Assembly (NCBI RefSeq): GCF_050920415.1
Contig: NZ_CP169309.1
Source: Escherichia coli
Lineage (GTDB): Bacteria > Pseudomonadota > Gammaproteobacteria > Enterobacterales > Enterobacteriaceae
Strand: one strand, 5' to 3'
Length of the DNA: 64,000 bases
Part shown: piece after piece, positions 2,210 through 36,258 of the stretch
How the letters are laid out: every line of letters begins with the position of its first letter
Numbering within the stretch: position 1 is the first letter of the stretch
Notes under the pieces: generated by a model
Database searches by the model: none
What the model was told of the DNA's origin: nothing
The model's input: the letters and a program-made list of their open reading frames with translations, nothing else
Position numbers and translations under genes: made by a program

Positions 2210-2340
2210 CCCGTAGGCCTGATAAGACGCGCAAGCGTCGCATCAGGCATCGCGTGTCGGATGCGGCGCGAGCGCCTTATCCGACCTACATCGGTGCTTC
2301 CCGTAGGCCTGATAAGACGCGTTAAGCGTCGCATCAGGCT
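2210..2340. repeat. REP/BIME cluster (three REP units in alternating orientation)
   Basis: Repeated gtaggcctgataagacgcg...gcgtcgcatcaggc palindromic units between sucC and sucB. Confidence 0.8.
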
Positions 2341-3634: not shown

Positions 3635-6436
3635 TTATTCGACGTTCAGCGCGTCATTAACCAGATCTTGTTGCTGTTTCTGGTGAACGGACATATACCC
3701 TACCGCCGGAGAGGCGGAGGCCGGGCGGCCTGCATAACGCAGAGAAGCCCCAAACGGAATCACTTCACGGAAATGATGCTGGCTACAGTACCATGCGCCC
3801 TGGTTGAGCGGCTCTTCCTGGCACCAGACAAAATCCTTGACGTGAGCAAACTGCTGCAACACTTCCTGCATCGCTTTATGCGGGAACGGGTAGAGTTGCT
3901 CGATACGCACGATGGCGACATCGTGTTGATTGTTCTTACGACGTTGTTCCAGCAGGTCGTAATAAACCTTACCAGAACACATCACTACGCGCTTCACGCC
4001 CTTCGGATCAAGCTCGTCGATTTCACCAATGGCAGGCAGGAAGGTGCCGTTCGCCAGTTCTTCGAGGCTGGAAACCGCCAGCGGATGACGCAGCAGGGAT
4101 TTCGGCGACATCACCACCAGCGGACGACGCATCCCGCGCAGCGCCTGACGACGCAGCATATGGTAAACCTGTGCCGGGGTAGACGGTACGCACACCTGCA
4201 TGTTTTGTTCAGCACAAAGTTGCAGATAACGTTCCAGACGCGCGGAGGAGTGCTCCGGCCCTTGCCCTTCATACCCGTGCGGCAGCAGCATTACCAGACC
4301 ACACATCCGGCCCCATTTCTGTTCGCCAGAGGAGATGAACTGGTCGATAACCACCTGCGCACCGTTAGCGAAGTCACCAAACTGCGCTTCCCAGATGGTC
4401 AGCGTGCGCGGCTCTGCGGTGGCATAACCGTATTCAAACGCCAGCACTGCTTCTTCAGACAGTACGGAGTCCCAGACGCGGAACGCGCCCTGACCATTAT
4501 GGATATGTTGCAGCGGCGTGTAAGTGGAACCGTTGGACTGATTGTGGATCACCGCATGACGATGGAAGAAGGTACCGCGACCGGAGTCTTCACCCGACAG
4601 GCGGACCGGAATGCCTTCATCAACCAGCGTGGCGTAAGCGAGGTTTTCCGCGCCGCCCCAGTCGAACAGTTTCTCACCGGCAGCCATTGCCTGGCGATCG
4701 CCATAAATCTTGGCAACGCGAGACTGCATTTCAACCGCTTCCGGCACCGTACTGATACGTTTAGCCAGTTCCTGCAGGCGCTTCATCTCAACTTTGTTCG
4801 GGTACTCTTCGTCCCATTCGTGGTTGAGGTACGGCGACCAGGTGAAAGAGTGCATGTTCATCGGACGCCACTCTGCTACCACGCAATCGCCAGCATCCAG
4901 CGCATCACGGTACAGGTTAACCATCTCGGTGGCATCTTCCAGCGTCGCGACTTTTTCCTGCTCCAGCTTGTCAGCGTAGATTTTGCGCGGCGTCGGATGT
5001 TTTTTGATTTTCTGATACATCAGCGGCTGAGTTGCACTCGGCTCGTCGGCTTCGTTGTGGCCGTGACGGCGGTAGCACACCAGGTCGATGAAGACATCAC
5101 GTTTAAAGGTGTTACGGAAATCGAGCGCCAGACGGGTCACAAAGGCAACGGCTTCCGGATCATCCGCATTAACGTGGAAAATCGGTGCCTGTACCATCTT
5201 GCCGATATCAGTACAGTACGGCGTAGAACGGGCATCCAGCGGGTTAGAGGTAGTGAAACCGACCTGGTTGTTGATAACGATACGTACCGTACCGCCAACT
5301 TCATAACCACGCGCTTTCGACATGTTCAGGGTTTCCTGAACCACGCCCTGCCCGGTCACTGCGGCGTCACCGTGGATGGTGATTGGCAGCACTTTGTTGC
5401 TGCTCGGCTCATCGAGTCTGTCCAGACGGGCGCGAACAGAACCGATAACTACCGGGCTTACAATCTCAAGGTGAGACGGGTTAAACGCCAGCGCCAGGTG
5501 AACCAGGCCGCCGTCGGTCTGGAAGTCAGACGAGAAGCCCATGTGGTATTTCACGTCGCCCGTGCCGAGGTGTTCTTTATGTTTACCGGCAAACTCGTCG
5601 AACAAGTCTTGCGGTTTTTTACCCAGCACGTTAACCAGCACGTTCAGACGACCACGGTGCGCCATCCCGAGAACCACTTCACGGGTGCCGCTATTGCCAG
5701 CATGGCGGATAATCTCTTTAAGCATCGGGATTAACGCGTCACCGCCTTCCAGCGAGAAGCGTTTTGCGCCAGGGAATTTTGCGCCGAGGTAACGTTCAAG
5801 GCCTTCAGCGGCGGTCAGTTCGCTTAAGAAGCGTTTTTTCTCTTCGCTATTGAAAGTCGCGCGACCAGACTCGATACGCTGTTGGATCCAGCGTTTTTCT
5901 TCGGTGCTGGTAATGTGCATGTACTCGGCACCAATCGGGCCGCAGTAGGTTTGCTTGAGGGCTTCCAGCAGCTCGCCGAGTTTCATGGTTTCTTTGCCGC
6001 TGGCAAATGAACCGACGTTGAAGGTCTCCTGGAAGTCTGCTTCGGTCAGATCGTGGAAAGACGGATCCAGATCGGCCACTTTATCTTGCTGCCACAGTCC
6101 CAGCGGATCGAGATTCGCATGCTGGTGACCGCGGAAGCGGTATGCGTTAATGAGCTGCAGGACTTTAACCTGCTTCACATTGGTGTCAGGGTCGGAGATC
6201 GTTGAAGAGTAACGTGAAGCGTCTTTCGCCAGGCGGCGGAAATATTCACGCGTTTGAGAGTGGAATTGATCCGGTTTGACTCCCGTACCAGGTAACTGCT
6301 GGAACGTCGAACGCCAGTTAGCGTCAACCGAGTCAGGATCGGTTAAGAAGTCTTCATAGAGCTGTTCTATCCAGCTCTGGTTTGCGCCAGAGAGGTAAGA
6401 AGAGTCCAACCAGGCTTTCAAAGCGCTGTTCTGCAT
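3635..6436 (-). CDS. sucA: 2-oxoglutarate dehydrogenase E1 component
   Basis: 933 aa ORF starting [31 protein letters not shown]. Confidence 0.97.
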
Positions 6437-6609
6437 CGTGATCCCTTAAGCATCTTTTTTATGCTTACTTCGCCGTGGATACTACCACGCACAGTGATGT
6501 GCGTGCCGGGGTTCACTTGCGAGCTCTTGTCTACGTAGTGGCTCGCGAAGGAACCTTTAAAAACTGTCTTAGTGTCAGGGGCAGTTTTTAAAGATTTCCT
6601 GCATTTCTT

Positions 6610-6690
6610 TTGTAGGCCGGATAACGCATTCACGCCGCATCCGGCACTGGTTGCCTGATGCGACGCTTGTGCGTCTTATCAGGCCTGGGT
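6610..6690. repeat. REP elements in sdhB-sucA intergenic region
   Basis: tgtaggccggataa...gcatccggca and gcctgatgcgacgc...gcgtcttatcaggcc palindromic units. Confidence 0.75.
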
Positions 6691-7407
6691 TTACGCATTA
6701 CGCTGCAACAACATCGACTTGATATGGCCGATGGCGCGCGTCGGGTTCAGCCCCTTCGGACATACACTGACGCAGTTCATGATGCTGTGACAGCGGAATA
6801 CACTGAATGCATCGCTCAAACCGTCGAGGCGGCTGTCAGTCTCGGTATCACGGCTATCGATCAGGAAACGATATGCCGCTAACAAGCCTGCCGGGCCGAT
6901 AAACTTATCGGGATTCCACCAGAAAGACGGACAAGAGGTTGAACAACATGCGCAGAGAATACATTCATACAGCCCGTCGAGTTTTTCGCGCTGCTCTGGC
7001 ATCTGTAAATGCTCGCGAGCTGGCGGATTTTGTCCATTATTCAACAGGTAAGGCTTAATTTTCTCATATTGCGCATAGAATTGTCCCATGTCTACCACCA
7101 AATCGCGGATCACCGGTAAACCTGGCAGCGGGCGAATCACAATCTTCTTGCCCGGCTGGTTGAGTGCCGAAATCGGGGTAATACAGGCCAGACCATTCTT
7201 ACCGTTCATGTTCAGACCGTCGGAACCGCACACACCTTCACGGCAGGAACGACGGAACGACAGGCTGGGATCTTTCTCTTTCAACTGGATAAGCGCATCC
7301 AGCAGCATCATGTCGCGACCTTCTTCCGCTTCCAGGGTGTAATCCTGCATACGCGGAGCATCATCAACATCCGGGTTATAGCGATAAATTGAAAACTCGA
7401 GTCTCAT
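6691..7407 (-). CDS. sdhB: Succinate dehydrogenase iron-sulfur subunit
   Basis: 238 aa ORF with Fe-S cysteine clusters. Confidence 0.97.
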   Translation of the reverse strand: MRLEFSIYRYNPDVDDAPRMQDYTLEAEEGRDMMLLDALIQLKEKDPSLSFRRSCREGVCGSDGLNMNGKNGLACITPISALNQPGKKIVIRPLPGLPVIRDLVVDMGQFYAQYEKIKPYLLNNGQNPPAREHLQMPEQREKLDGLYECILCACCSTSCPSFWWNPDKFIGPAGLLAAYRFLIDSRDTETDSRLDGLSDAFSVFRCHSIMNCVSVCPKGLNPTRAIGHIKSMLLQRNA

Positions 7408-28230: not shown

Positions 28231-28347
28231 TACTGCTCCTGAACGGTTTACAGGAGTAAGTGTAGACGTTGGGAAATGATATTTGTGAAGTTAATCCTGT
28301 TGTAGCAGGGCAAGATTACGAAAGCCCGCTCCCCGCAAGGACTGACG

Positions 28348-28893
28348 TCAGCTAGTTTCTGTCCATAGCTGCCCTTTCCATTCAAACGTGAAATCAATAA
28401 GTTCATCAGGGACATCGCAAACAATGTGAAGACGGATTTCTTCTCTGCCGTGACTCTTTTCACTAATTGCGTAACTGTCATGCTCTGGATTATTTAATTC
28501 TTTCAGCGGAAATTTTTCCTCGAAGGCTTTATTTAGCCGCCCCTGGTTTCCTTTTACAGCGAATAAATAATCACCTCCCTGTTTTTGTATCTTCTCTGCA
28601 ATATCTTTCTGGCAACCCATCGCATCAGTTGTGATGATTTTTCCTTTAATATCCAGCATGTTAAGAAGTTCCGGGGTAGCTGTAATCTCAATACCATTTT
28701 CAAAATCACCATATTGCTTCAAAAAATCGAGATGTGTTTCCCCAAAATCCTCTATATCTTCCCAACCTTCCGCACCCGAAATAACGGCGCAAATAGTCAA
28801 CAGTAGAATATCCGATAATTTATGCTCCACTTTCCAGGCTTGTCTGTAATCGGGGATAATAGAAATATGTTCCATCAATTTTTTAAGTTCCAT
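28348..28893 (-). pseudogene. ybfD: H-repeat-associated (ISAs1-family) transposase remnant, internally deleted and C-terminally truncated
   Basis: N-terminus [18 protein letters not shown]... typical of H-rpt proteins; only 181 aa where full length is about 378 aa; central region appears missing (recalled comparison). Confidence 0.7.
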
Positions 28894-29062
28894 TTTGTTC
28901 TCCTTAATTATGTAAGGAGTATTTGATCATGTATAAGCAATAAAAAACAGCTTCAGGTAATGAGGAATATCTCAATTTTTAAACATAAAATGCGAATTAT
29001 TTAGTACAAAAAAGCAGCGTTAAGTGAGTAGGCCACCGGAACCTCCCCGACAGCCTCTCGCA

Positions 29063-29096
29063 GAACCGTACGTGAAACTCTCGCTTCATACGGCTC
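29063..29096 (-). ncRNA. Group II intron ribozyme domain V
   Basis: Minus-strand GAGCCGTATGAAGCGAGAGTTTCACGTACGGTTC, 34 nt, with AGC triad and CGAGAG-type loop. Confidence 0.85.
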
Positions 29097-29099
29097 CCG

Positions 29100-30353
29100 T
29101 CAGGCAAACGCGCTTCCTGGTCCTGCTTTCCAGTGGGCAAACAACTCCGGCTTCTCTTTTGACAGCCTTTCCATTAGCTGACACGCCTTCGTCTTTCTAT
29201 ACCGCAGGGTTTTATATTTCTTTCTCGCCCACGCAATCAGCGTCAGATTAATATATCTGCATACTTTCTTCATCGCTGATTTGTGGTATCTCGCGTAATA
29301 ATTCAGCCACCCCGATATTATCGGATTCAGCCACTTCGCAATATCTTCGAGACTCATCTCCACCCTGCGTCTGATCCACAGTTTCCTGAGTTTTCCAATC
29401 ATGCCTTTCTGCGCACGGTTACTCGCCGCCGGGCTGAAACTCGTAAAGAGGTTTCCCCGCCGGTGGTTACGTGCTCTTCGCGCTCTGAACGTATACCCCA
29501 GAAAATCAAACTGCACTGTTTCATGGTTCGCCTGTCGTTCGCTGTCTTTGCAGTAAACTACTTTCGTTTTCTCCGGATGTAATTCCAGTCCACATTCCTG
29601 AAAACGTTTTGCCAGCTTATTCAGTAATTCCTCTGCCTGTTGTTTACTGCCACAATGAATTAATCCATCATCTGCATAACGGCACCAGGGAATTTCCGGA
29701 TAATGTAACGTCAGCCATTTATCAAACACATAGTGCAGAAATAAATTCGCCAGTACCGGGCTGATGACTCCACCCTGTGGCGTACCTTTATTTCTTTCCT
29801 TCAGTGTTCCATCCGGCATCTGCACCGGCGCTGTCAGCCACCGGCGAATAGACAGTCTTACCCATTTATCCGCACAATGTTTATCTACTGCCCTGAGTAA
29901 TAAATCGTGGGAGATATTATCGAATAACCCTTTAATATCAAACTCAAGACACCAGTCGTATTGCCAGCAACGTTTTCTGGTGACTGCTATTGCATCCAGC
30001 GCTGATTTTCCATGCCGGTATCCGTATGAATCATTCAGGAAATAACGCTCCACTAATGGTTCAAACGTTACCAGCACCGTCATCTGCGCTATTCGATCGC
30101 TTACTGTCGGTATTCCTAAAAGTCTTTTGCTGCCATCCTTCTTCGGAATTTCCACCGCACGCACTGGCGGCGGCATCCAGCTTCCCGACGATAACCTGTT
30201 CCAGATTTTGTACAGATTTCCTTTCAGATCCCGCTCAAAATCTTTCAGCGTCTGGTTATCCACTCCGGCAGCTCCGGCATTCGCCTTTATCCGCCGGTAC
30301 GCTTCCACCACATGCAATTTACTGACCTGAAACGGTTTTGTCTGTTCACACAC
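29100..30353 (-). CDS. Group II intron-encoded reverse transcriptase/maturase (no endonuclease domain)
   Basis: 417 aa; RT motifs LLGIPTVSDRIAQ and YADDGLI; C-terminal maturase X-like region; no HNH. Confidence 0.9.
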   Translation of the reverse strand: MCEQTKPFQVSKLHVVEAYRRIKANAGAAGVDNQTLKDFERDLKGNLYKIWNRLSSGSWMPPPVRAVEIPKKDGSKRLLGIPTVSDRIAQMTVLVTFEPLVERYFLNDSYGYRHGKSALDAIAVTRKRCWQYDWCLEFDIKGLFDNISHDLLLRAVDKHCADKWVRLSIRRWLTAPVQMPDGTLKERNKGTPQGGVISPVLANLFLHYVFDKWLTLHYPEIPWCRYADDGLIHCGSKQQAEELLNKLAKRFQECGLELHPEKTKVVYCKDSERQANHETVQFDFLGYTFRARRARNHRRGNLFTSFSPAASNRAQKGMIGKLRKLWIRRRVEMSLEDIAKWLNPIISGWLNYYARYHKSAMKKVCRYINLTLIAWARKKYKTLRYRKTKACQLMERLSKEKPELFAHWKAGPGSAFA

Positions 30354-30481
30354 AGCCTCCTCCTGCCTACAGTTGGGCTGTGATGCAGACTAGACTGGCC
30401 CCCTGAATCTCCAGACAACCAGTATCACTTAAATAAGTGATAGTCTTAATACTAGTTTTTAGACTAGTCATTGGAGAACAG

Positions 30482-30847
30482 ATGATTGATGTCTTAGGGC
30501 CGGAGAAACGCAGACGGCGTACCACACAGGAAAAGATCGCAATTGTTCAGCAGAGCTTTGAACCGGGGATGACGGTCTCCCTCGTTGCCCGGCAACATGG
30601 TGTAGCAGCCAGCCAGTTATTTCTCTGGCGTAAGCAATACCAGGAAGGAAGTCTTACTGCTGTCGCCGCCGGAGAACAGGTTGTTCCTGCCTCTGAACTT
30701 GCTGCCGCCATGAAGCAGATTAAAGAACTCCAGCGCCTGCTCGGCAAGAAAACGATGGAAAATGAACTCCTCAAAGAAGCCGTTGAATATGGACGGGCAA
30801 AAAAGTGGATAGCGCACGCGCCCTTATTGCCCGGGGATGGGGAGTAA
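30482..30847 (+). CDS. insC: IS2 OrfA (InsC)
   Basis: [30 protein letters not shown]... 121 aa. Confidence 0.93.
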
Positions 30848-31710
30848 GCTTAGTCAGCCGTTGTCTCCGGGTGTCGCGTGCGCAGTTGCACGTCATTCTC
30901 AGACGAACCGATGACTGGATGGATGGCCGCCGCAGTCGTCACACTGATGATACGGATGTGCTTCTCCGTATACACCATGTTATCGGAGAGCTGCCCACGT
31001 ATGGTTATCGTCGGGTATGGGCGCTGCTTCGCAGACAGGCAGAACTTGATGGTATGCCTGCAATCAATGCCAAACGTGTTTACCGGATCATGCGCCAGAA
31101 TGCGCTGTTGCTTGAGCGAAAACCTGCTGTACCGCCATCGAAACGGGCACATACAGGCAGAGTGGCCGTGAAAGAAAGCAATCAGCGATGGTGCTCTGAC
31201 GGGTTCGAGTTCTGCTGTGATAACGGAGAGAGACTGCGTGTCACGTTCGCGCTGGACTGCTGTGATCGTGAGGCACTGCACTGGGCGGTGACTACTGGCG
31301 GCTTCAACAGTGAAACAGTACAGGACGTCATGCTGGGAGCGGTGGAACGCCGCTTCGGCAACGATCTTCCGTCGTCTCCAGTGGAGTGGCTGACGGATAA
31401 TGGTTCATGCTACCGGGCTAATGAAACACGCCAGTTCGCCCGGATGTTGGGACTTGAACCGAAGAACACGGCGGTGCGGAGTCCGGAGAGTAACGGAATA
31501 GCAGAGAGCTTCGTGAAAACGATAAAGCGTGACTACATCAGTATCATGCCCAAACCAGACGGGTTAACGGCAGCAAAGAACCTTGCAGAGGCGTTCGAGC
31601 ATTATAACGAATGGCATCCGCATAGTGCGCTGGGTTATCGCTCGCCACGGGAATATCTGCGGCAGCGGGCTTGTAATGGGTTAAGTGATAACAGATGTCT
31701 GGAAATATAG
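30805..31710 (+). CDS. insD: IS2 OrfB transposase (InsD, DDE)
   Basis: 301 aa ORF overlapping insC in the -1 frame. Confidence 0.93.
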
Positions 31711-32342
31711 GGGCAAATCCACAGACTGCCCGACGCTGTCCCTTCGCTCCACGTTCATTACAAACGCTTCCTCACTACTACGAACAGCTCTGCCCCGGTT
31801 TCGCACATCGATACTCTCATACTCATAATTTCGGTTATTTGTATTTCTCTCTTGAAATTGCGACGACCGGTTCCCGTAGTTCCTGCAAAGAGCCTGATAC
31901 AGCGTCATGCCTGCTATACACCGGACACCATTCACGCAGCATTCGGAATTCACCCGTAAATTAATCCCGGCGGTATCACGAAACCTCCGGTTTTGATGTC
32001 ACTTAGGACTAACGACGTTTCAACACAGGTTCGGGTTTACTCATCTCACTGTATCTCACATAGGATCAGATCTCGTCTGATCGTTCCCCCTGCGCTCACT
32101 ACCATGGCTCTTTACCACAGCAGCCGGGGTTGTTTGGGACCGACTTCCGACAGCAGATCCCGGTGGGCCTGCCACCATCTCTTCACAAGCTTATGCTTAT
32201 TACATGCAAAACGTCCCGTTTTGCATCTTTGTGCCTACGGCACACGATGATCTTTCCCTGTACCACCTCCTCAGGAAGTGGTTTAAGGTTAATAACAAAA
32301 ATACCAATCATTTTAATAAAATATGACGAGTATTTATTTTCA

Positions 32343-32615
32343 TTATATTTTAAAGCATCCTAGCCCCTGCGATGCTCGCCATCGTTTTAACTCATCAACA
32401 ATCCCTTGGGGACTATCTTCTCTATCTTCAGATGGATAGAATATCAAATCACTACCATCTGGGTGCTGAGTGATTCTAATAAAATGACTTACAAGATCAT
32501 CAATAAACTTCGACAATTTATCGCCATGCAATTCCTCAGGTGGTTCAAAAAAATTATTTAGAAGTTCGATAAATTCATCTTCCGTATAATCTTCTAGATT
32601 ATTTTTAAACTCCAT
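32343..32615 (-). CDS. Colicin/pyocin DNase immunity protein (Im9-like)
   Basis: 90 aa; aligns with recalled Im9: DYTE.EF, HP(D/S)GSDLI(F/Y)YP, (D/E)DSP.GIV, (K/Q)WRA; starts 14 nt after the vgrG stop. Confidence 0.88.
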   Translation of the reverse strand: MEFKNNLEDYTEDEFIELLNNFFEPPEELHGDKLSKFIDDLVSHFIRITQHPDGSDLIFYPSEDREDSPQGIVDELKRWRASQGLGCFKI

Positions 32616-32629
32616 TACTACCTCCTTTT

Positions 32630-35600
32630 TTATTTATGCAATCGTATGTGGTTTTTAGGTGTGTTTACTCTAAGATTATCAATATCATAGACTTCTCCCC
32701 CATATTGGATTTCGTCAATATGATGAATTTCAAATGTACCTCGCCCCCCAACTCTTTGTCTTGATATAGTATAAGGTGCGCGTCCACGCTTTATCAACGT
32801 TTGGTTAGCTTTATTAAATTGGCTCAATAGTTCTGGACATTCACCTACAGCAGTCCAGAAAGCTGCCCTGAATTCATCAAAATTGTTAAATGACTTACTC
32901 CGAAGTTTATTTGCGACCTGTTGTGGAATTGGCACTCCTAAGCTTTTCCCCGCCTGCGACAGCCATCTTCCTGTACCTGCTAACACCTCCCCCTTACCTG
33001 TTACTGTTCCCGCTTCATCCCTTGCAGTTTTCAGATACACATATATTGGTGTTAATTCCGCACCGTCAGGAAAGACAAGTATCCAGTCATTAAAATTTCG
33101 CTCCTCCGGCATTGGAGAAGGCGGCGTGGTGATATCTGTTTTTTCATCGGGTATCGGATTAACATAAATATCAGGTAGATCAACTGGTTCGACAGGAGTT
33201 CCGGTGTGTATGGGCTGCTCTGAACCTTCTGGCTTTGCAGGCGTCCAAAATATTTTTGGTCCCGAATCAGACACAGGTGAAAATTCATAACGGGAAAATT
33301 CCTTATTCCACTCCATCAATGCTACCCGAACACCTTCAAGTTCCGAACCTGCGGGTGTGTGGTATCCGTATGTTCTCAATTCACCAGCAGTATTCCGCTG
33401 AAAGAGAAAGCGCGCCCGCGTAGCTGCCGTCTCTCCAGATTGCGCTTTACGACGTAGCTCATTTTCGAGCCACTGTTCATCCCGTCCAGGAACTTTATCA
33501 CTACCTTCACCGGCAGGTATTGGATATAGTGCTGATACTAGAACACCAAGGGCTGGCACCGTTTTTGATACACTTAAAAAACCTTCTCCACCCCATGCCC
33601 CTAATGTTCCCCATACGCGAGTTAAAACTCCCGCAGACTGTTCCGCCGCTAGTGGAACCGCAACACCCGCTGACGCAACTGTCATTTCCCCCGTCAGTGA
33701 GTTCGCTCCTGAAGTTTTTTTTGCTGACTGCGCAAGTTGCTCCACTTCATCGTCATGATAGTGTGTACCATAGCCGCAACAGTCATCCTCCACTGGCTGG
33801 GCAAATAGAGCCATATCACCAAAATGTTTCGATGGCTCCATGGTCGTACCAGCATCAGTGCAGCCTTTCTCCTTCAGACAAGATTTTGCGTATACAGGAA
33901 TTACCAGTTCATCTGAATCGTCCTTGTCTTCTTCTCCACCTTCTGATTCATCCTCATCACTAGGCTCTCCGTCATTCCCGCCGCCAGCATTCCCTCTGTC
34001 ATACTGCTCGTCAGCCAGAGCGTCCATAACTGCCGGTTGTAGTGTATTTATCGGCGTCCCCGGACTGCCCCCGCCATTCAGATTTATTTTCGGTCCGACA
34101 ATATCCACACCACCAGAATGAACGACCACAAACGAGCCCCCCACCTTCAGGCTTATCCGGCTGCTGCTCTCCAGCACGATATCCCCGTCCACCTTGATCC
34201 CCAGCGCGCCACTCACCTTCTCCGCCAGGTCGCCCTTCACCTCCAGACTGTGCGTTCCCTCCACCAGACTGATATGGTTCCCCGTCGTCTTATGCTCCTG
34301 CTTCCCTTCCACCGTCACTTTACGGTCGTTTCTGACATACAGGCCGTCATCGTGACTCACGCTCACCGTCCGGTCATTCGTCACCTTCAGCGTCTGGTCA
34401 TTACGTACCGTTATGCGCCGGTCGTTCGCCACCGTGATACTCTGGTCGTGACCCCCTTCTTTTCTGGTGCCGACCTCAACCGTCTGCCCCTTCACCACCC
34501 TTATCTTCTGGTCGTTACCGATGGTCTCCGTATGGTCATGCTTCACGTCCGTCCGCCGGTCGTTAAGCACCTCCGTGTCCATGTTCTTCTGCGCGTGGAT
34601 ATACACCTGCTCACTGTCCGTCGCATCCTCGAAACGCAGTTCATTAAAGCCGCTTCCTTTATAGGTCTTCGAGCGGATGGTCATCTGCGTCCGCGTGCCC
34701 GGTAAATCCCCCGGTGAACGGTTGTCCTCATGGTATGTCCGCCCCGTCACAATGGGCTGGTCCGGGTCGCCGTTCAGAAAGTCCACTATCACTTCCTGAC
34801 CCACACGCGGTATCGCCAGATTGCCGAACCCCGGTCCCGCCCATGCCTGCGACACCCGTATCCAGCATGAACTCTCCTCCGTCATCCCGTGATAACGGTC
34901 CCAGTGAAACTTCACCCGTACCCGGCCATGTTCGTCGCAGAATATCTCCTCGCCCTTCGGCCCGGTCACAATGGCACTCTGCGGGCCGTCCACCTTCGGC
35001 TTCGGCAGCGGCGCGTGACGCCACGTCCTGTCTGCCGGTATCACCTCAAACTGATTGCTCAGTGTCGTCCCTTCACCGTGACTCCCGTGCAGCGCCTGCG
35101 GCTGTTCTCCCCGCAGTGTGCTTCCCACAACCTGCCATTCCCGGTTCAGCGTCCCTGACGGATGGCCCGTCAGCCGGAACCGCGTTCCCGGCCACAGTCG
35201 CGCCGTGTTACACACCCCGCTCGCCGTCTCCGCCCCGTTCCGCCACCCTTCCGTCTGGTAACGCGCAAAATCCTGGCCATGCTGCTCATCCTTGAAACGC
35301 CCCGGATAATCAAATATCTCGTACTGCGTTCCCTGCCCGTTCAGGCTCTCCCCGTCATGGCTGTAGTACCCCGGCCACCCCGGCGTTTTGAACGTATAAT
35401 CCTGCGTCTCCACCGACGCCACGCTTATCTGCGCACGGTAACGGAAGTCGCTGATGTACTCTGTCGTGCCTCCGGTCGTGGTATTCGGGTTAAACGCCAG
35501 CGCCCCCATTCCCGTCAGCCCCGCCACGTCATCACACACCGCCAGCTTCTGTTCCGGCCCGTCCTGACTGCAGCGTTCATAAAAGAAGATACCTTCCTCC

Positions 35601-36085
35601 GCCCACAGCCGGGTCAGGAATGTCAGGTCGCTCTCCCCGTACTGCACGCAGAACTCCCGCGCCGGGTGCGCCTCATAGAACAGCGGCATCCACGCCGTCA
35701 CCCCGTTCTCTCTCAGAAGCTGTGCTGATATCGTCCCTATGTCCTGCTGCTGGAAGATACGGAAGTTCTGCCGTAACCCTGCCCGCCACAGCGGCGGGCT
35801 GATGCTCAGGGAATAACGCATCTGCCAGTCGTTGTTCTCACCGAGCTGCACCTCCGTCACGATACCGCTGACGTAACGCTGCGGGATATCACCCTGCCAG
35901 ACCGTCAGCACCGCGCTCTTCTCCAGAAAATCCTCCGCCGTCAGGTCAGACAGCCCGCTGGCGATATCCACATCCAGGATGAACGGCGTGCAGTGGTGCT
36001 GGTACAGACGGAAGCTCACCACCGCCGTCGCCATCTCCACGATACCGGCCACCGACAGCGTGAAACGTAATCCTTCTGAGGACAT
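32630..36085 (-). CDS. vgrG: Specialized VgrG spike protein fused to a C-terminal S-type-pyocin-like region and colicin E9-type HNH DNase
   Basis: N-terminal VgrG core (MSSEGLRFTL..., gp5-like VTVANDRRITVRNDQTLKVTNDRTVSVSHDD repeats); acidic linker; C-terminus GGRGTFEIHHIDEIQYGGEVYDIDNLRVNTPKNHIRLHK. Start taken at internal MSSEGLRF; the track ORF extends to 36118. Confidence 0.9.
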   Translation of the reverse strand: MSSEGLRFTLSVAGIVEMATAVVSFRLYQHHCTPFILDVDIASGLSDLTAEDFLEKSAVLTVWQGDIPQRYVSGIVTEVQLGENNDWQMRYSLSISPPLWRAGLRQNFRIFQQQDIGTISAQLLRENGVTAWMPLFYEAHPAREFCVQYGESDLTFLTRLWAEEGIFFYERCSQDGPEQKLAVCDDVAGLTGMGALAFNPNTTTGGTTEYISDFRYRAQISVASVETQDYTFKTPGWPGYYSHDGESLNGQGTQYEIFDYPGRFKDEQHGQDFARYQTEGWRNGAETASGVCNTARLWPGTRFRLTGHPSGTLNREWQVVGSTLRGEQPQALHGSHGEGTTLSNQFEVIPADRTWRHAPLPKPKVDGPQSAIVTGPKGEEIFCDEHGRVRVKFHWDRYHGMTEESSCWIRVSQAWAGPGFGNLAIPRVGQEVIVDFLNGDPDQPIVTGRTYHEDNRSPGDLPGTRTQMTIRSKTYKGSGFNELRFEDATDSEQVYIHAQKNMDTEVLNDRRTDVKHDHTETIGNDQKIRVVKGQTVEVGTRKEGGHDQSITVANDRRITVRNDQTLKVTNDRTVSVSHDDGLYVRNDRKVTVEGKQEHKTTGNHISLVEGTHSLEVKGDLAEKVSGALGIKVDGDIVLESSSRISLKVGGSFVVVHSGGVDIVGPKINLNGGGSPGTPINTLQPAVMDALADEQYDRGNAGGGNDGEPSDEDESEGGEEDKDDSDELVIPVYAKSCLKEKGCTDAGTTMEPSKHFGDMALFAQPVEDDCCGYGTHYHDDEVEQLAQSAKKTSGANSLTGEMTVASAGVAVPLAAEQSAGVLTRVWGTLGAWGGEGFLSVSKTVPALGVLVSALYPIPAGEGSDKVPGRDEQWLENELRRKAQSGETAATRARFLFQRNTAGELRTYGYHTPAGSELEGVRVALMEWNKEFSRYEFSPVSDSGPKIFWTPAKPEGSEQPIHTGTPVEPVDLPDIYVNPIPDEKTDITTPPSPMPEERNFNDWILVFPDGAELTPIYVYLKTARDEAGTVTGKGEVLAGTGRWLSQAGKSLGVPIPQQVANKLRSKSFNNFDEFRAAFWTAVGECPELLSQFNKANQTLIKRGRAPYTISRQRVGGRGTFEIHHIDEIQYGGEVYDIDNLRVNTPKNHIRLHK

Positions 36086-36258
36086 ATAAACCCCATAGCT
36101 ACCGCACTCATGGTGCAAACCATACGGGCTTATAAGAAAGGCTTAAGTGAGATATCTGCCAGATAGCAACTATTAGGAAAATATTTATATATATTTCATG
36201 AATATATATTTCGGTTGGTATAACGGTGTCTAAATATTCCTCTGAACATCTTCCTGAT

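Follow-up and report, generated by a model that had tools for sequence, protein, structure and literature searches.

Sequence comparison identifies an IS2-interrupted group II intron in a decayed ISEc1 element of Escherichia coli as a copy of E.c.I9

Behind a vgrG-DNase/immunity gene pair of Escherichia coli, an open reading frame for a reverse transcriptase borders an IS2 element. Its position raises the questions of what kind of element encodes the enzyme, whether that element is new, and whether the copy at this locus is still mobile. We analysed a window of 64,000 nucleotides containing the locus (NCBI RefSeq assembly GCF_050920415.1, contig NZ_CP169309.1). An ISEc1 insertion sequence follows the vgrG-DNase/immunity pair, between ybfA-kdp and ybgA, and mobile elements are nested in one another at the locus in an unremarkable way (Table 1). 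The reverse transcriptase very probably belongs to a copy of E.c.I9, a mobile class D group II intron, which is located in its homing site in ISEc1 and is nested and degraded.

Table 1. Positions of the intron, its exons and the inserted element in the window
Feature	Position	Strand	Evidence
5' exon, outer 15 nt CAGGGAAAGATCATC of the ISEc1 left inverted repeat	32246..32260	-	15-mer shared by full-length copies
Predicted IBS1, ATCATC	32251-32246	-	
5' intron section (nt 1-524): GUGUG, domains I-III, start of domain IV	31722..32245	-	
Conserved segment of domain I, RF01999 (group-II-D1D4-2)	32059..32176	-	93.1 bits, E=1.2e-17
Domain I hairpin bearing predicted EBS1	31967..31990	-	
Predicted EBS1, CGUGAU, intron nt 266-271	31980-31975	-	Complementarity to AUCACG
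IS2 (1331 bp) in domain IV, antisense to the intron	30391..31721	+	Ends, duplication, two IS2 proteins
RT/maturase ORF, remainder beyond IS2	29100..30385	-	TIGR04416, RVT_1, GIIM
Domain V, 34 nt, GAGCCGTATGAAGCGAGAGTTTCACGTACGGTTC	29063..29096	-	RF00029 and predicted fold
Domain VI, one bulged branch-point A at 29029	29026..29059	-	RF00029 and predicted fold
3' exon, remainder of decayed H-rpt/ISEc1	28306..29022	-	Alignment to intact ISEc1 of L010

The group II intron extends from position 32245 to 29023 of the minus strand, as proposed in the first-pass annotation of the locus, and has a net length of 1887 nt after IS2 is taken out, which agrees with the expected length of about 1.9 kb. The covariance-model check suggested there gave two Rfam matches above their gathering scores. 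The match to RF01999 (gathering score 36) spans the full-length model and places domain I structure 5' of the reading frame, and the objection that domains I–IV might be lacking there falls away. The match to RF00029 (gathering score 40) covers domains V–VI at 29098–29023 with 62.8 bits and E=5.5e-10. Both matches were reproduced on an IS2-free copy. Domain V contains the conserved AGC and has a 2-nt bulge in the predicted fold, and the bulged adenine of domain VI is at position -7, counted from the final base of the intron (29023). The two domains were found where they had been expected and with the expected folds, and the 5' motif GTGTG is at 32245–32241 of the minus strand. The matches to domain V, domain VI and the 5' motif are not due to chance. 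The minimum-free-energy fold of the ribozyme without its reading frame formed no recognisable six-domain wheel.

The ends of the intron, which had been put forward as a candidate 5' GUGUG at 32245 and a probable 3' end near 29023, are fixed by three independent comparisons. Full-length copies elsewhere have identical terminal bases despite different flanks, and in the empty sites of L017 and L002 the exons are joined with 0 bases gained or lost. The published coordinates of the 1887-bp E.c.I9 have the same ends. The 3' terminus, ...CACU, has C at -2 instead of the usual A and departs from the AY consensus. A cytosine at this position is common to the reference E.c.I9 (CACU) and an E.c.I2-like intron (...CACC). 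Because relatives share it, the C at -2 is a trait of the lineage, and it is no argument against group II membership.

Without IS2, the window intron is identical at 1887 of 1887 positions to an annotated copy at the yafV locus of E. coli MFDS1022581 (L001), in which positions 6001–6524 correspond, with 100% identity, to intron nucleotides 1–524. The alignment to NC_010468 2411599–2413485 (E. coli ATCC 8739), the published reference copy, is gap-free over 1887 nt, with 96.3% identity and identical ends. In Tables S2 and S3 of Leclercq & Cordaux 2012 (PMC3522654) this segment appears under class D as E.c.I9, of full length and "in a Rhs region", and names were given there to introns with >90% nucleotide identity to a reference copy (PMC3522654 Table S2). 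With an identity above this limit and the same boundaries, the window intron is, by alignment, a copy of the already catalogued E.c.I9 and not a new element. Its assignment to bacterial class D is based on the literature, the absence of an HNH domain and the C-terminal motif of its protein. The structural class of E.c.I9 is IIB-like.

The E.c.I9 of ATCC 8739, as named in the Zimmerly database, has the same length, the same first and last bases, the same class and the same kind of site as the window intron, namely the left end of an Rhs-associated ISEc1/H-rpt element. The two differ in locus (kdp-ybgA in the window, pptA/RhsE in ATCC 8739), in 25 of the 440 residues of the reverse transcriptase, in EBS1 (CGUGAU in the window, GAUGAU in ATCC 8739) and in the exon variants, and the window copy carries IS2. 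A sister intron of class D, E.c.I2-like and with 71% nucleotide identity, is present in E. coli MS1050 (L016). Its 416-aa reverse transcriptase is 61% identical, ungapped, and ends in the class D tail PQLFAHW. Domains I and V are conserved between the two introns, with a compensatory pair in domain V. The E.c.I2-like intron also resides in H-rpt elements of the ISAs1 family, but it sits within the transposase reading frame, whereas E.c.I9 occupies the terminal repeat. Furthermore, the leader reading frame of the E.c.I2-like intron is out of frame and overlaps the start of the reverse transcriptase (ATGA), whereas in E.c.I9 it is fused in frame (440 aa).

The left inverted repeat of an H-rpt/ISEc1 element (ISAs1 family) contains the homing site, 15 nt from the outer end of the repeat. 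The 15-mer CAGGGAAAGATCATC is found upstream of all the full-length intron copies compared, full-length copies at at least five different loci are each preceded by CAGGGAAAGATCAYS, and the intact ISEc1 of L017 starts with CAGGGAAAGATCACG TAACGCTGC. The host element in the window has an ISAs1 transposase (NF033564, E=1.3e-44, matched in two stretches) and the CAGGG(A/C)AAGAT.ACG inverted repeats that characterise H-rpt/ISEc1, and is a remnant. Two stretches of its interior, 246 and 316 bp long, are missing by comparison with the intact elements of L010 and L017, its transposase reading frame is truncated to 181 aa (28893–28348), and its right inverted repeat ends at 28306. The intron had initially been placed just downstream of the immunity gene, from the 3' UTR of which it was thought able to splice. 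ISEc1 does follow the immunity gene, but the real insertion site is the left inverted repeat of ISEc1 and not simply a 3' UTR. Neither the ISEc1 site nor the identity with E.c.I9 had been noticed in the first-pass annotation. No terminator was predicted between the stop codon of the immunity gene and the intron, and promoter-like matches occur at background level only.

Small, endonuclease-minus and intergenic introns are also known from bacterial class C (IIC). However, IIC introns insert after terminator hairpins, whereas the window intron is located in a specific end of an insertion sequence, probably read by a 6-nt EBS1, and the literature places E.c.I9 in class D (PMC3522654). The hairpin upstream of the intron, CCACTTCC-TGA-GGAGGTGG, is a feature of the locus and is absent from the shared homing site.

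Recognition of the site appears to be mediated by pairing of EBS1 (CGUGAU) with the last six bases of the exon, which are usually AUCACG. The hexamer CGUGAU is the sole perfect Watson-Crick complement of AUCACG within the ribozyme, and all six positions are paired in six sampled copies with this exon (L006, L008–L011 and L014). In addition, EBS1 covaries with the exon in the E.c.I2-like intron, the EBS1 loop of which, CGUCCAG, faces its own exon CUGGACG. Recognition probably extends to the invariant upstream bases CAGGGAAAGA. Neither complementarity nor the comparison of E.c.I9 with the E.c.I2-like intron provided a convincing EBS2 or EBS3 partner for exon positions -8 to -15 or +1. In L018, an intron copy occupies the corresponding site of the right inverted repeat and has the reverse orientation. 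The right end reads ATTACG|A at the insertion point, and the left end ATCACG|T, or ATCATC|T in the window. The use of both ends of ISEc1 is comparable to that of RmInt2, which targets the inverted repeats of insertion sequences (PMC4615759). ISEc1 left ends without the intron are present in 5,194 of 5,426 complete E. coli genomes, and full-length intron copies in these genomes number 83.

In the window copy, EBS1 and the exon AUCAUC would form four Watson-Crick pairs and a G.U pair at -2, with a C/C mismatch at -1. The ligated exons ATCATC-TAACGCTG were not found uninterrupted in the 5,426 genomes, and the best full-length match listed has two mismatches. Because of this mismatched exon and the missing uninterrupted site, the copy and its flanks may have come from ISEc1/intron copies at different Rhs/vgrG loci, through gene conversion or homologous recombination, and not by retrohoming on the spot, an origin that we consider possible though somewhat unlikely. 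It would account for the odd exon pair ATCATC/...TAACGCTG shared by the window, the yafV copy and the window's own orthologue L005, and for an intron that is identical to the yafV copy and differs from L005 by three SNPs and a 1-nt deletion. The ATCC 8739 copy has the opposite mismatched combination of exons, which points in the same direction. However, the SNPs in the intron follow a pattern without a crossover, and nucleotides 1–262 of the window intron match the "pure" copies L008–L010. An exchange within the intron, joining the two intron types, is thus unsupported as the origin of the odd exon pair. Moreover, the exon is equally well accounted for by two base changes that followed insertion, and mismatched sites are tolerated by class D relatives such as RmInt2 (PMC4615759).

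The reverse transcriptase/maturase is encoded by a 417-aa reading frame at 30353–29100 of the minus strand, which contains the motifs LLGIPTVSDRIAQ and YADDGLI and starts with GTG at 30353, 5 nt behind AGGAGG. From residue 14 onwards it matches the NCBIfam group II equivalog TIGR04416 with 427.6 bits (cutoff 300 bits). The Pfam search identified the domains RVT_1 (2e-41) and GIIM (2.9e-13) and no HNH domain, which bears out the first description of a reverse transcriptase with a maturase region and without an HNH endonuclease. The extent of the reading frame had been given as 417 aa, and a frame of this length is present, but the one annotated by RefSeq in intact copies has 440 aa and begins with an ATG at window position 31758, on the other side of IS2, by which it is split in the window. 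Its first 12 codons fall within the 31722..32245 segment. In the numbering of the intron, this ATG is at nt 488 and the GTG of the 417-aa frame at nt 557. RefSeq labels the identical copies ltrA. The class D motif LX3AX3PXLF[V/A]HW (PMC4615759) is represented by PELFAHW at residues 425–431 of the 440-aa frame, at the C-terminus, and the upstream L and A positions are occupied by M/L and S. The 417-aa frame is the core of class D length and is distinct from the 440-aa frame of RefSeq.

IS2, of the IS3 family, has a length of 1331 bp, imperfect terminal inverted repeats, a 5-bp target duplication and both of its proteins, TnpA (NF006928, 273.8 bits, cutoff 229) and TnpB (NF006918, 727.6 bits, cutoff 597). 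The duplication, GTCTG on the minus strand, is located at 31726–31722 and 30390–30386 and corresponds to intron nucleotides 520–524. The insertion is 32 nt upstream of the start of the 417-aa frame and inside codon 13 of the 440-aa frame, and IS2 thus interrupts the leader or N-terminal extension of the reverse transcriptase. All the ribozyme domains and the 417-aa frame of class D length are still intact.

The IS2-bearing copy might still work. Its RNA would fold around the 1.3 kb inserted in domain IV and would be spliced by the 417-aa protein or by that of another E.c.I9 copy in the same cell, and the copy could even carry IS2 as cargo. The parts of its ribozyme are base-for-base identical to those of a copy with an intact reading frame, the GTG at 30353, behind AGGAGG, falls in the alignment exactly on the ATG that starts the 416-aa E.c.I2-like protein, and the TIGR04416 match begins within the 417-aa frame. 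The size of this frame is near the 419 aa of the RmInt1-family proteins (PMC4615759), and at least two intron copies are present in related strains. Nevertheless, we regard a working copy as unlikely. The antisense orientation of IS2 implies transcription converging on that of the intron, and the start lacks conservation, as the ATCC 8739 type has GCG in place of the GTG. IS2 also disrupts a stretch that is conserved between E.c.I9 and the E.c.I2-like intron and adjoins the ribosome-binding site and start codon. In Ll.LtrB, the region near the ribosome-binding site and start codon is the main binding site of the intron protein. EBS1 faces a mismatch at exon position -1, and 5,426 complete E. 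coli genomes contain no second example of the IS2-intron junction. With the antisense IS2 in domain IV, the mismatch at -1 and the deletions in ISEc1, the window copy is most likely immobile or strongly impaired. "Impaired" is a judgement: domain IV of other introns tolerates inserts, and the 417-aa frame retains a strong AGGAGG site. That the enzyme is instead a retron or defence-associated reverse transcriptase with a coincidental domain V match, as the first-pass annotation had considered, is exceedingly improbable: the NCBIfam matches to such families (Drt3a 77 of 200 bits, Drt2 60.5 of 390, retron St85 56.7 of 235, others lower; family cutoffs 200–600 bits) are weak, below threshold and expected of any reverse transcriptase domain, whereas the group II equivalog cutoff is passed, the protein contains the maturase-specific GIIM domain, the matches to two independent Rfam intron models have the right order and strand, the ends of the element are precise, and empty sites exist.

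The closest models of mobility are RmInt1 and RmInt2 of Sinorhizobium meliloti (class D, IIB3). Their proteins of ~419 aa have neither a D nor an En domain and contain the class D motif, and both introns, like E.c.I9, home into insertion sequences, a likeness drawn from their described features; they differ from E.c.I9 in host and in family of insertion sequence. Splicing, lagging-strand bias and interaction with DnaN have been established experimentally for RmInt1, whereas the E.c.I9 counterparts are predicted. By analogy, an intact copy of E.c.I9 would be transcribed by read-through from upstream genes and spliced as a lariat with the aid of its own protein. At a replication fork, the resulting RNA-protein particle would reverse splice into target DNA that is single-stranded, and cDNA synthesis would be primed by a nascent lagging strand. 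RmInt1-type introns are described as preferring the lagging-strand template (PMC8914252). The GC skew of the plus strand of the window is mostly negative, which is weak evidence for a minus-strand intron in the lagging-strand template.

Already in 2012 the intron family was catalogued together with its class, Rhs/H-rpt homing site and truncated derivatives, and the correct annotation of the locus is a copy of E.c.I9 interrupted by IS2, with no novel element. The window adds a nest of three levels, with IS2 in the intron and the intron in ISEc1, behind a toxin/immunity pair of a type VI secretion system (T6SS). It provides a natural test of whether domain IV of a class D intron tolerates 1.3 kb of cargo in antisense orientation. 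Both ends of ISEc1 serve as homing sites in related genomes, as reported for RmInt2. Fragments of the 5' part of the intron (stubs) are present in 47% of complete E. coli genomes. It is conceivable, although we think it improbable, that E.c.I9 and ISEc1 are locked in reciprocal nested insertion and that the stubs and mismatched exons are functional. The intron would insert into both ends of ISEc1, and ISEc1 would repeatedly insert into the resident left end or within ~200 nt of the 5' terminus of the intron. Deletions between the insertion sequences would then leave intron stubs of 96–193 nt before the transposase gene. If the stubs, or the mismatched exons of the window and ATCC 8739, are maintained and not merely recent, they could be structured leaders, or handles for recombination by which Rhs/vgrG toxin loci have their distal ends reshuffled.

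The minus strand of the window contains a group II intron, the ribozyme of which is split into two halves by IS2. The RF01999 match 5′ of the open reading frame (ORF) and the RF00029 match both exceed the Rfam gathering scores, and the latter encloses the canonical domain V. Domain VI is predicted to fold with a single bulged A that lies 7 nt from the 3′-terminal base of the intron (29023). At empty sites in BL21, N96, ET350, and SK1144, the exons are joined without gain or loss of bases, which fixes both ends of the intron, including the 5′ GUGUG. After subtracting IS2 and one copy of its duplication, the intron is 1887 nt long; intron positions (nt) below are counted without IS2. The first-pass annotation, which had proposed these domains and ends, a length of about 1.9 kb, and the interruption by IS2, read the element correctly. 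It is an ordinary and already catalogued one, the class D intron E.c.I9.

Coordinates of the intron, its components, and neighbouring features in the window
Feature	Position	Strand	Details
GUGUG, intron 5′ end	32245-32241	minus	
RF01999 (group-II-D1D4-2)	32176-32059	minus	93.1 bits, E=1.2e-17, full model
Domain I hairpin, loop with CGUGAU (nt 266-271)	31990-31967	minus	
IS2	30391-31721	plus	1331 bp, imperfect terminal repeats, 5-bp duplication GTCTG
417-aa ORF	30353-29100	minus	TIGR04416 (group II intron RT/maturase equivalog), 427.6 bits, cutoff 300
RF00029 (domains V-VI)	29098-29023	minus	62.8 bits
Domain V, 34-mer	29096-29063	minus	
Domain VI	29059-29026	minus	bulged A at 29029
Host ISEc1 remnant	28306-32260		two internal deletions; transposase ORF truncated to 181 aa
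Bacteriocin immunity protein (RefSeq), 90 aa	32343-32615	minus	next after VgrG
VgrG, 1162 aa	32630-36118	minus	C-terminal S-type pyocin/HNH DNase domain (NF047924 partial match)

At the yafV locus, E. coli MFDS1022581 has an ltrA-annotated copy that matches the IS2-free intron at 1887 of 1887 positions. A gapless alignment with equal first and last bases gives 96.3% identity to NC_010468 2411599-2413485 of E. coli ATCC 8739, a full-length E.c.I9 copy with a class D ORF "in a Rhs region" (Leclercq & Cordaux 2012, PMC3522654). The exact match is a paralogous copy; the orthologous kdp-ybgA copy of MFDS1022581 (L005) lacks IS2, is 99.8% identical, and differs by three SNPs and a 1-nt deletion at nt 1224 (L005 ~7178-7179) that frameshifts ltrA. 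This pattern hints at conversion between copies or independent decay. Full-length copies occur in 83 of 5,426 complete E. coli genomes, and at least a 5′ fragment in 2,565.

The 417-residue protein is a group II RT/maturase. It passes the group II equivalog model, whereas its scores against retron and DRT models are far under their cutoffs in an NCBIfam profile search, so that a retron or defence-associated RT is rejected. As anticipated, it contains RVT_1 and maturase-specific GIIM domains, and no HNH domain was found with Pfam. The C-terminal PELFAHW is the conserved core of LX3AX3PXLF[V/A]HW, the class D motif of RmInt1-type proteins (PMC4615759). The RefSeq ORF of 440 residues starts with ATG at nt 488 (window 31758), and the shorter one with GTG at nt 557, 5 nt behind AGGAGG. 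In the alignment, this GTG coincides exactly with the start codon (ATG) for the 416-residue protein of an E.c.I2-like intron, and RmInt1-family proteins have 419 residues (PMC4615759); therefore, a protein of class D length is still encoded. Since the GTG is replaced by GCG in the ATCC 8739 type, both starts are retained as candidates. A conserved short leader ORF (window 31722-31758, MNVERRDSVGQS...; E. coli MS1050 locus L016 2937-3013, MEVERRGGIRQS...) sits just upstream of the RT start in both introns. In E.c.I9 this leader is joined in frame to the RT ORF, whereas in the E.c.I2-like intron it is a separate short ORF with an ATGA start overlap. Either a coupled upstream ORF or the RNA structure of domain IV to which the protein binds could account for this conservation.

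All sampled full-length copies have CAGGGAAAGATCAYS on their 5′ side and the remainder of an ISAs1-family H-rpt/ISEc1 element on their 3′ side. An intact unoccupied ISEc1 (L017) starts with CAGGGAAAGATCACG TAACGCTGC... and ends with ...CGTAATCTTGCCCTG; the flanks match this start, so the intron interrupts the left terminal inverted repeat 15 nt from its outer edge, with the transposase start about 130 nt downstream. Within the Rhs-associated IS (ISEc1-5), E.c.I2 and E.c.I9 are known to target separate positions (PMC3522654). E. coli 2013C-4282 carries a full-length E.c.I9-type intron (L018 3016-4902) in the right inverted repeat, at the mirror position, in opposite orientation and antiparallel to the transposase gene (CAGGGAAAGATTACG-intron-AAAGCCCGC), with the IBS1 AUUACG forming G·U at −4. 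Both ends of ISEc1 are thus specific homing sites, as reported for the IS ends used by RmInt2. The intron had been placed downstream of the immunity gene; the vgrG-DNase/immunity pair does precede it, but the ISEc1 host site, which follows this pair between ybfA-kdp and ybgA, had been overlooked. Window DNA 32600-36200 is 100% identical to MFDS1022581, and the split of the gene there into pseudo-tssI and a 403-residue pyocin-domain protein (RefSeq) is therefore one of annotation, not sequence. Rfam naRNA4 matches at 2216-2286 (minus) and 6615-6685 (plus), with 76.5 and 73 bits, are REP/BIME-type repeats unrelated to the intron.

The target is recognized by EBS1-IBS1 pairing. CGUGAU is the sole perfect complement of AUCACG within the ribozyme and pairs 6/6 with the 5′ exon in six sampled copies. 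In the E.c.I2-like intron, which is 71% identical and interrupts an ISAs1 transposase ORF, the homologous loop is CGUCCAG and its own exon CUGGACG; this covariation supports the EBS1 assignment. EBS2 and EBS3 of the window intron were looked for and not identified. The 5′ exon of the window copy and both MFDS1022581 copies is AUCAUC, giving G·U at −2 and C/C at −1. The ligated exons of the window copy were not found uninterrupted in the 5,426 genomes; among the full-length matches listed, the ATCACG form comes closest and differs at two positions. ATCC 8739 has the converse mismatch, EBS1 GAUGAU behind ATCACG; the EBS1 of each intron would match the 5′ exon of the other. Mismatch tolerance, post-insertion mutation, or conversion between IS ends are possible origins; a crossover within the intron does not explain the converse mismatch. 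The exon halves are also mismatched in type, both in the window (32246-32251, 29015-29022; ATCATC and TAACGCTG) and in ATCC 8739 (L004 5462-5476; ATCACG and AGAAGTAC).

Intron 5′ stubs, each directly followed by a complete ISEc1 left end, are present at L002 5001-5159 (159 nt), L003 5001-5193 (193 nt), L006 8945-9103 (about 141-159 nt), and L008/L009 866-976 (about 96-111 nt). The 193-bp and 159-bp E.c.I9 fragments reported in O157:H7 and BL21 (PMC3522654) were recovered here too. In both L006 and L008, the stub and left end lead into a new full-length intron copy. The stubs look as if ISEc1 had inserted into an intron already in place and a deletion between the two IS copies had then occurred. 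Tandem partial left ends, intron-free between, occur at L003 ~4970-5000 (CAGGGAAAGATCA and CAGGGAAAGATCATCG) and L001 ~5965-6000 (CAGGGAAAGGTCAAGTAAT and CAGGGAAAGATCATC), which suggests that ISEc1 tends to insert in or beside the left end of a copy already present.

The window copy is in nested decay. Both IS2 proteins pass IS2-specific NCBIfam models, and IS2 is antisense to the intron because its genes are on the plus strand. The insertion lies inside codon 13 of the 440-residue ORF; whichever start is used, the conserved leader is cut off from the ORF, and domain IV gains 1.3 kb of antisense IS. The IS2-intron junction was found in none of the 5,426 genomes, and the insertion is specific to the source strain. 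No terminator-like site was found between the immunity gene and the intron, and read-through transcription is therefore predicted to be possible. The window copy is, in our judgement, immobile or strongly impaired, and residual activity is unlikely. The GC skew of the plus strand is mostly negative, which agrees weakly with a position of the minus-strand intron in the template for lagging-strand synthesis. By analogy with RmInt1 and RmInt2 (PMC4615759; PMC8914252), an intact intron would undergo protein-assisted lariat splicing, reverse splice into single-stranded DNA at the replication fork, and use the nascent lagging strand as a primer.
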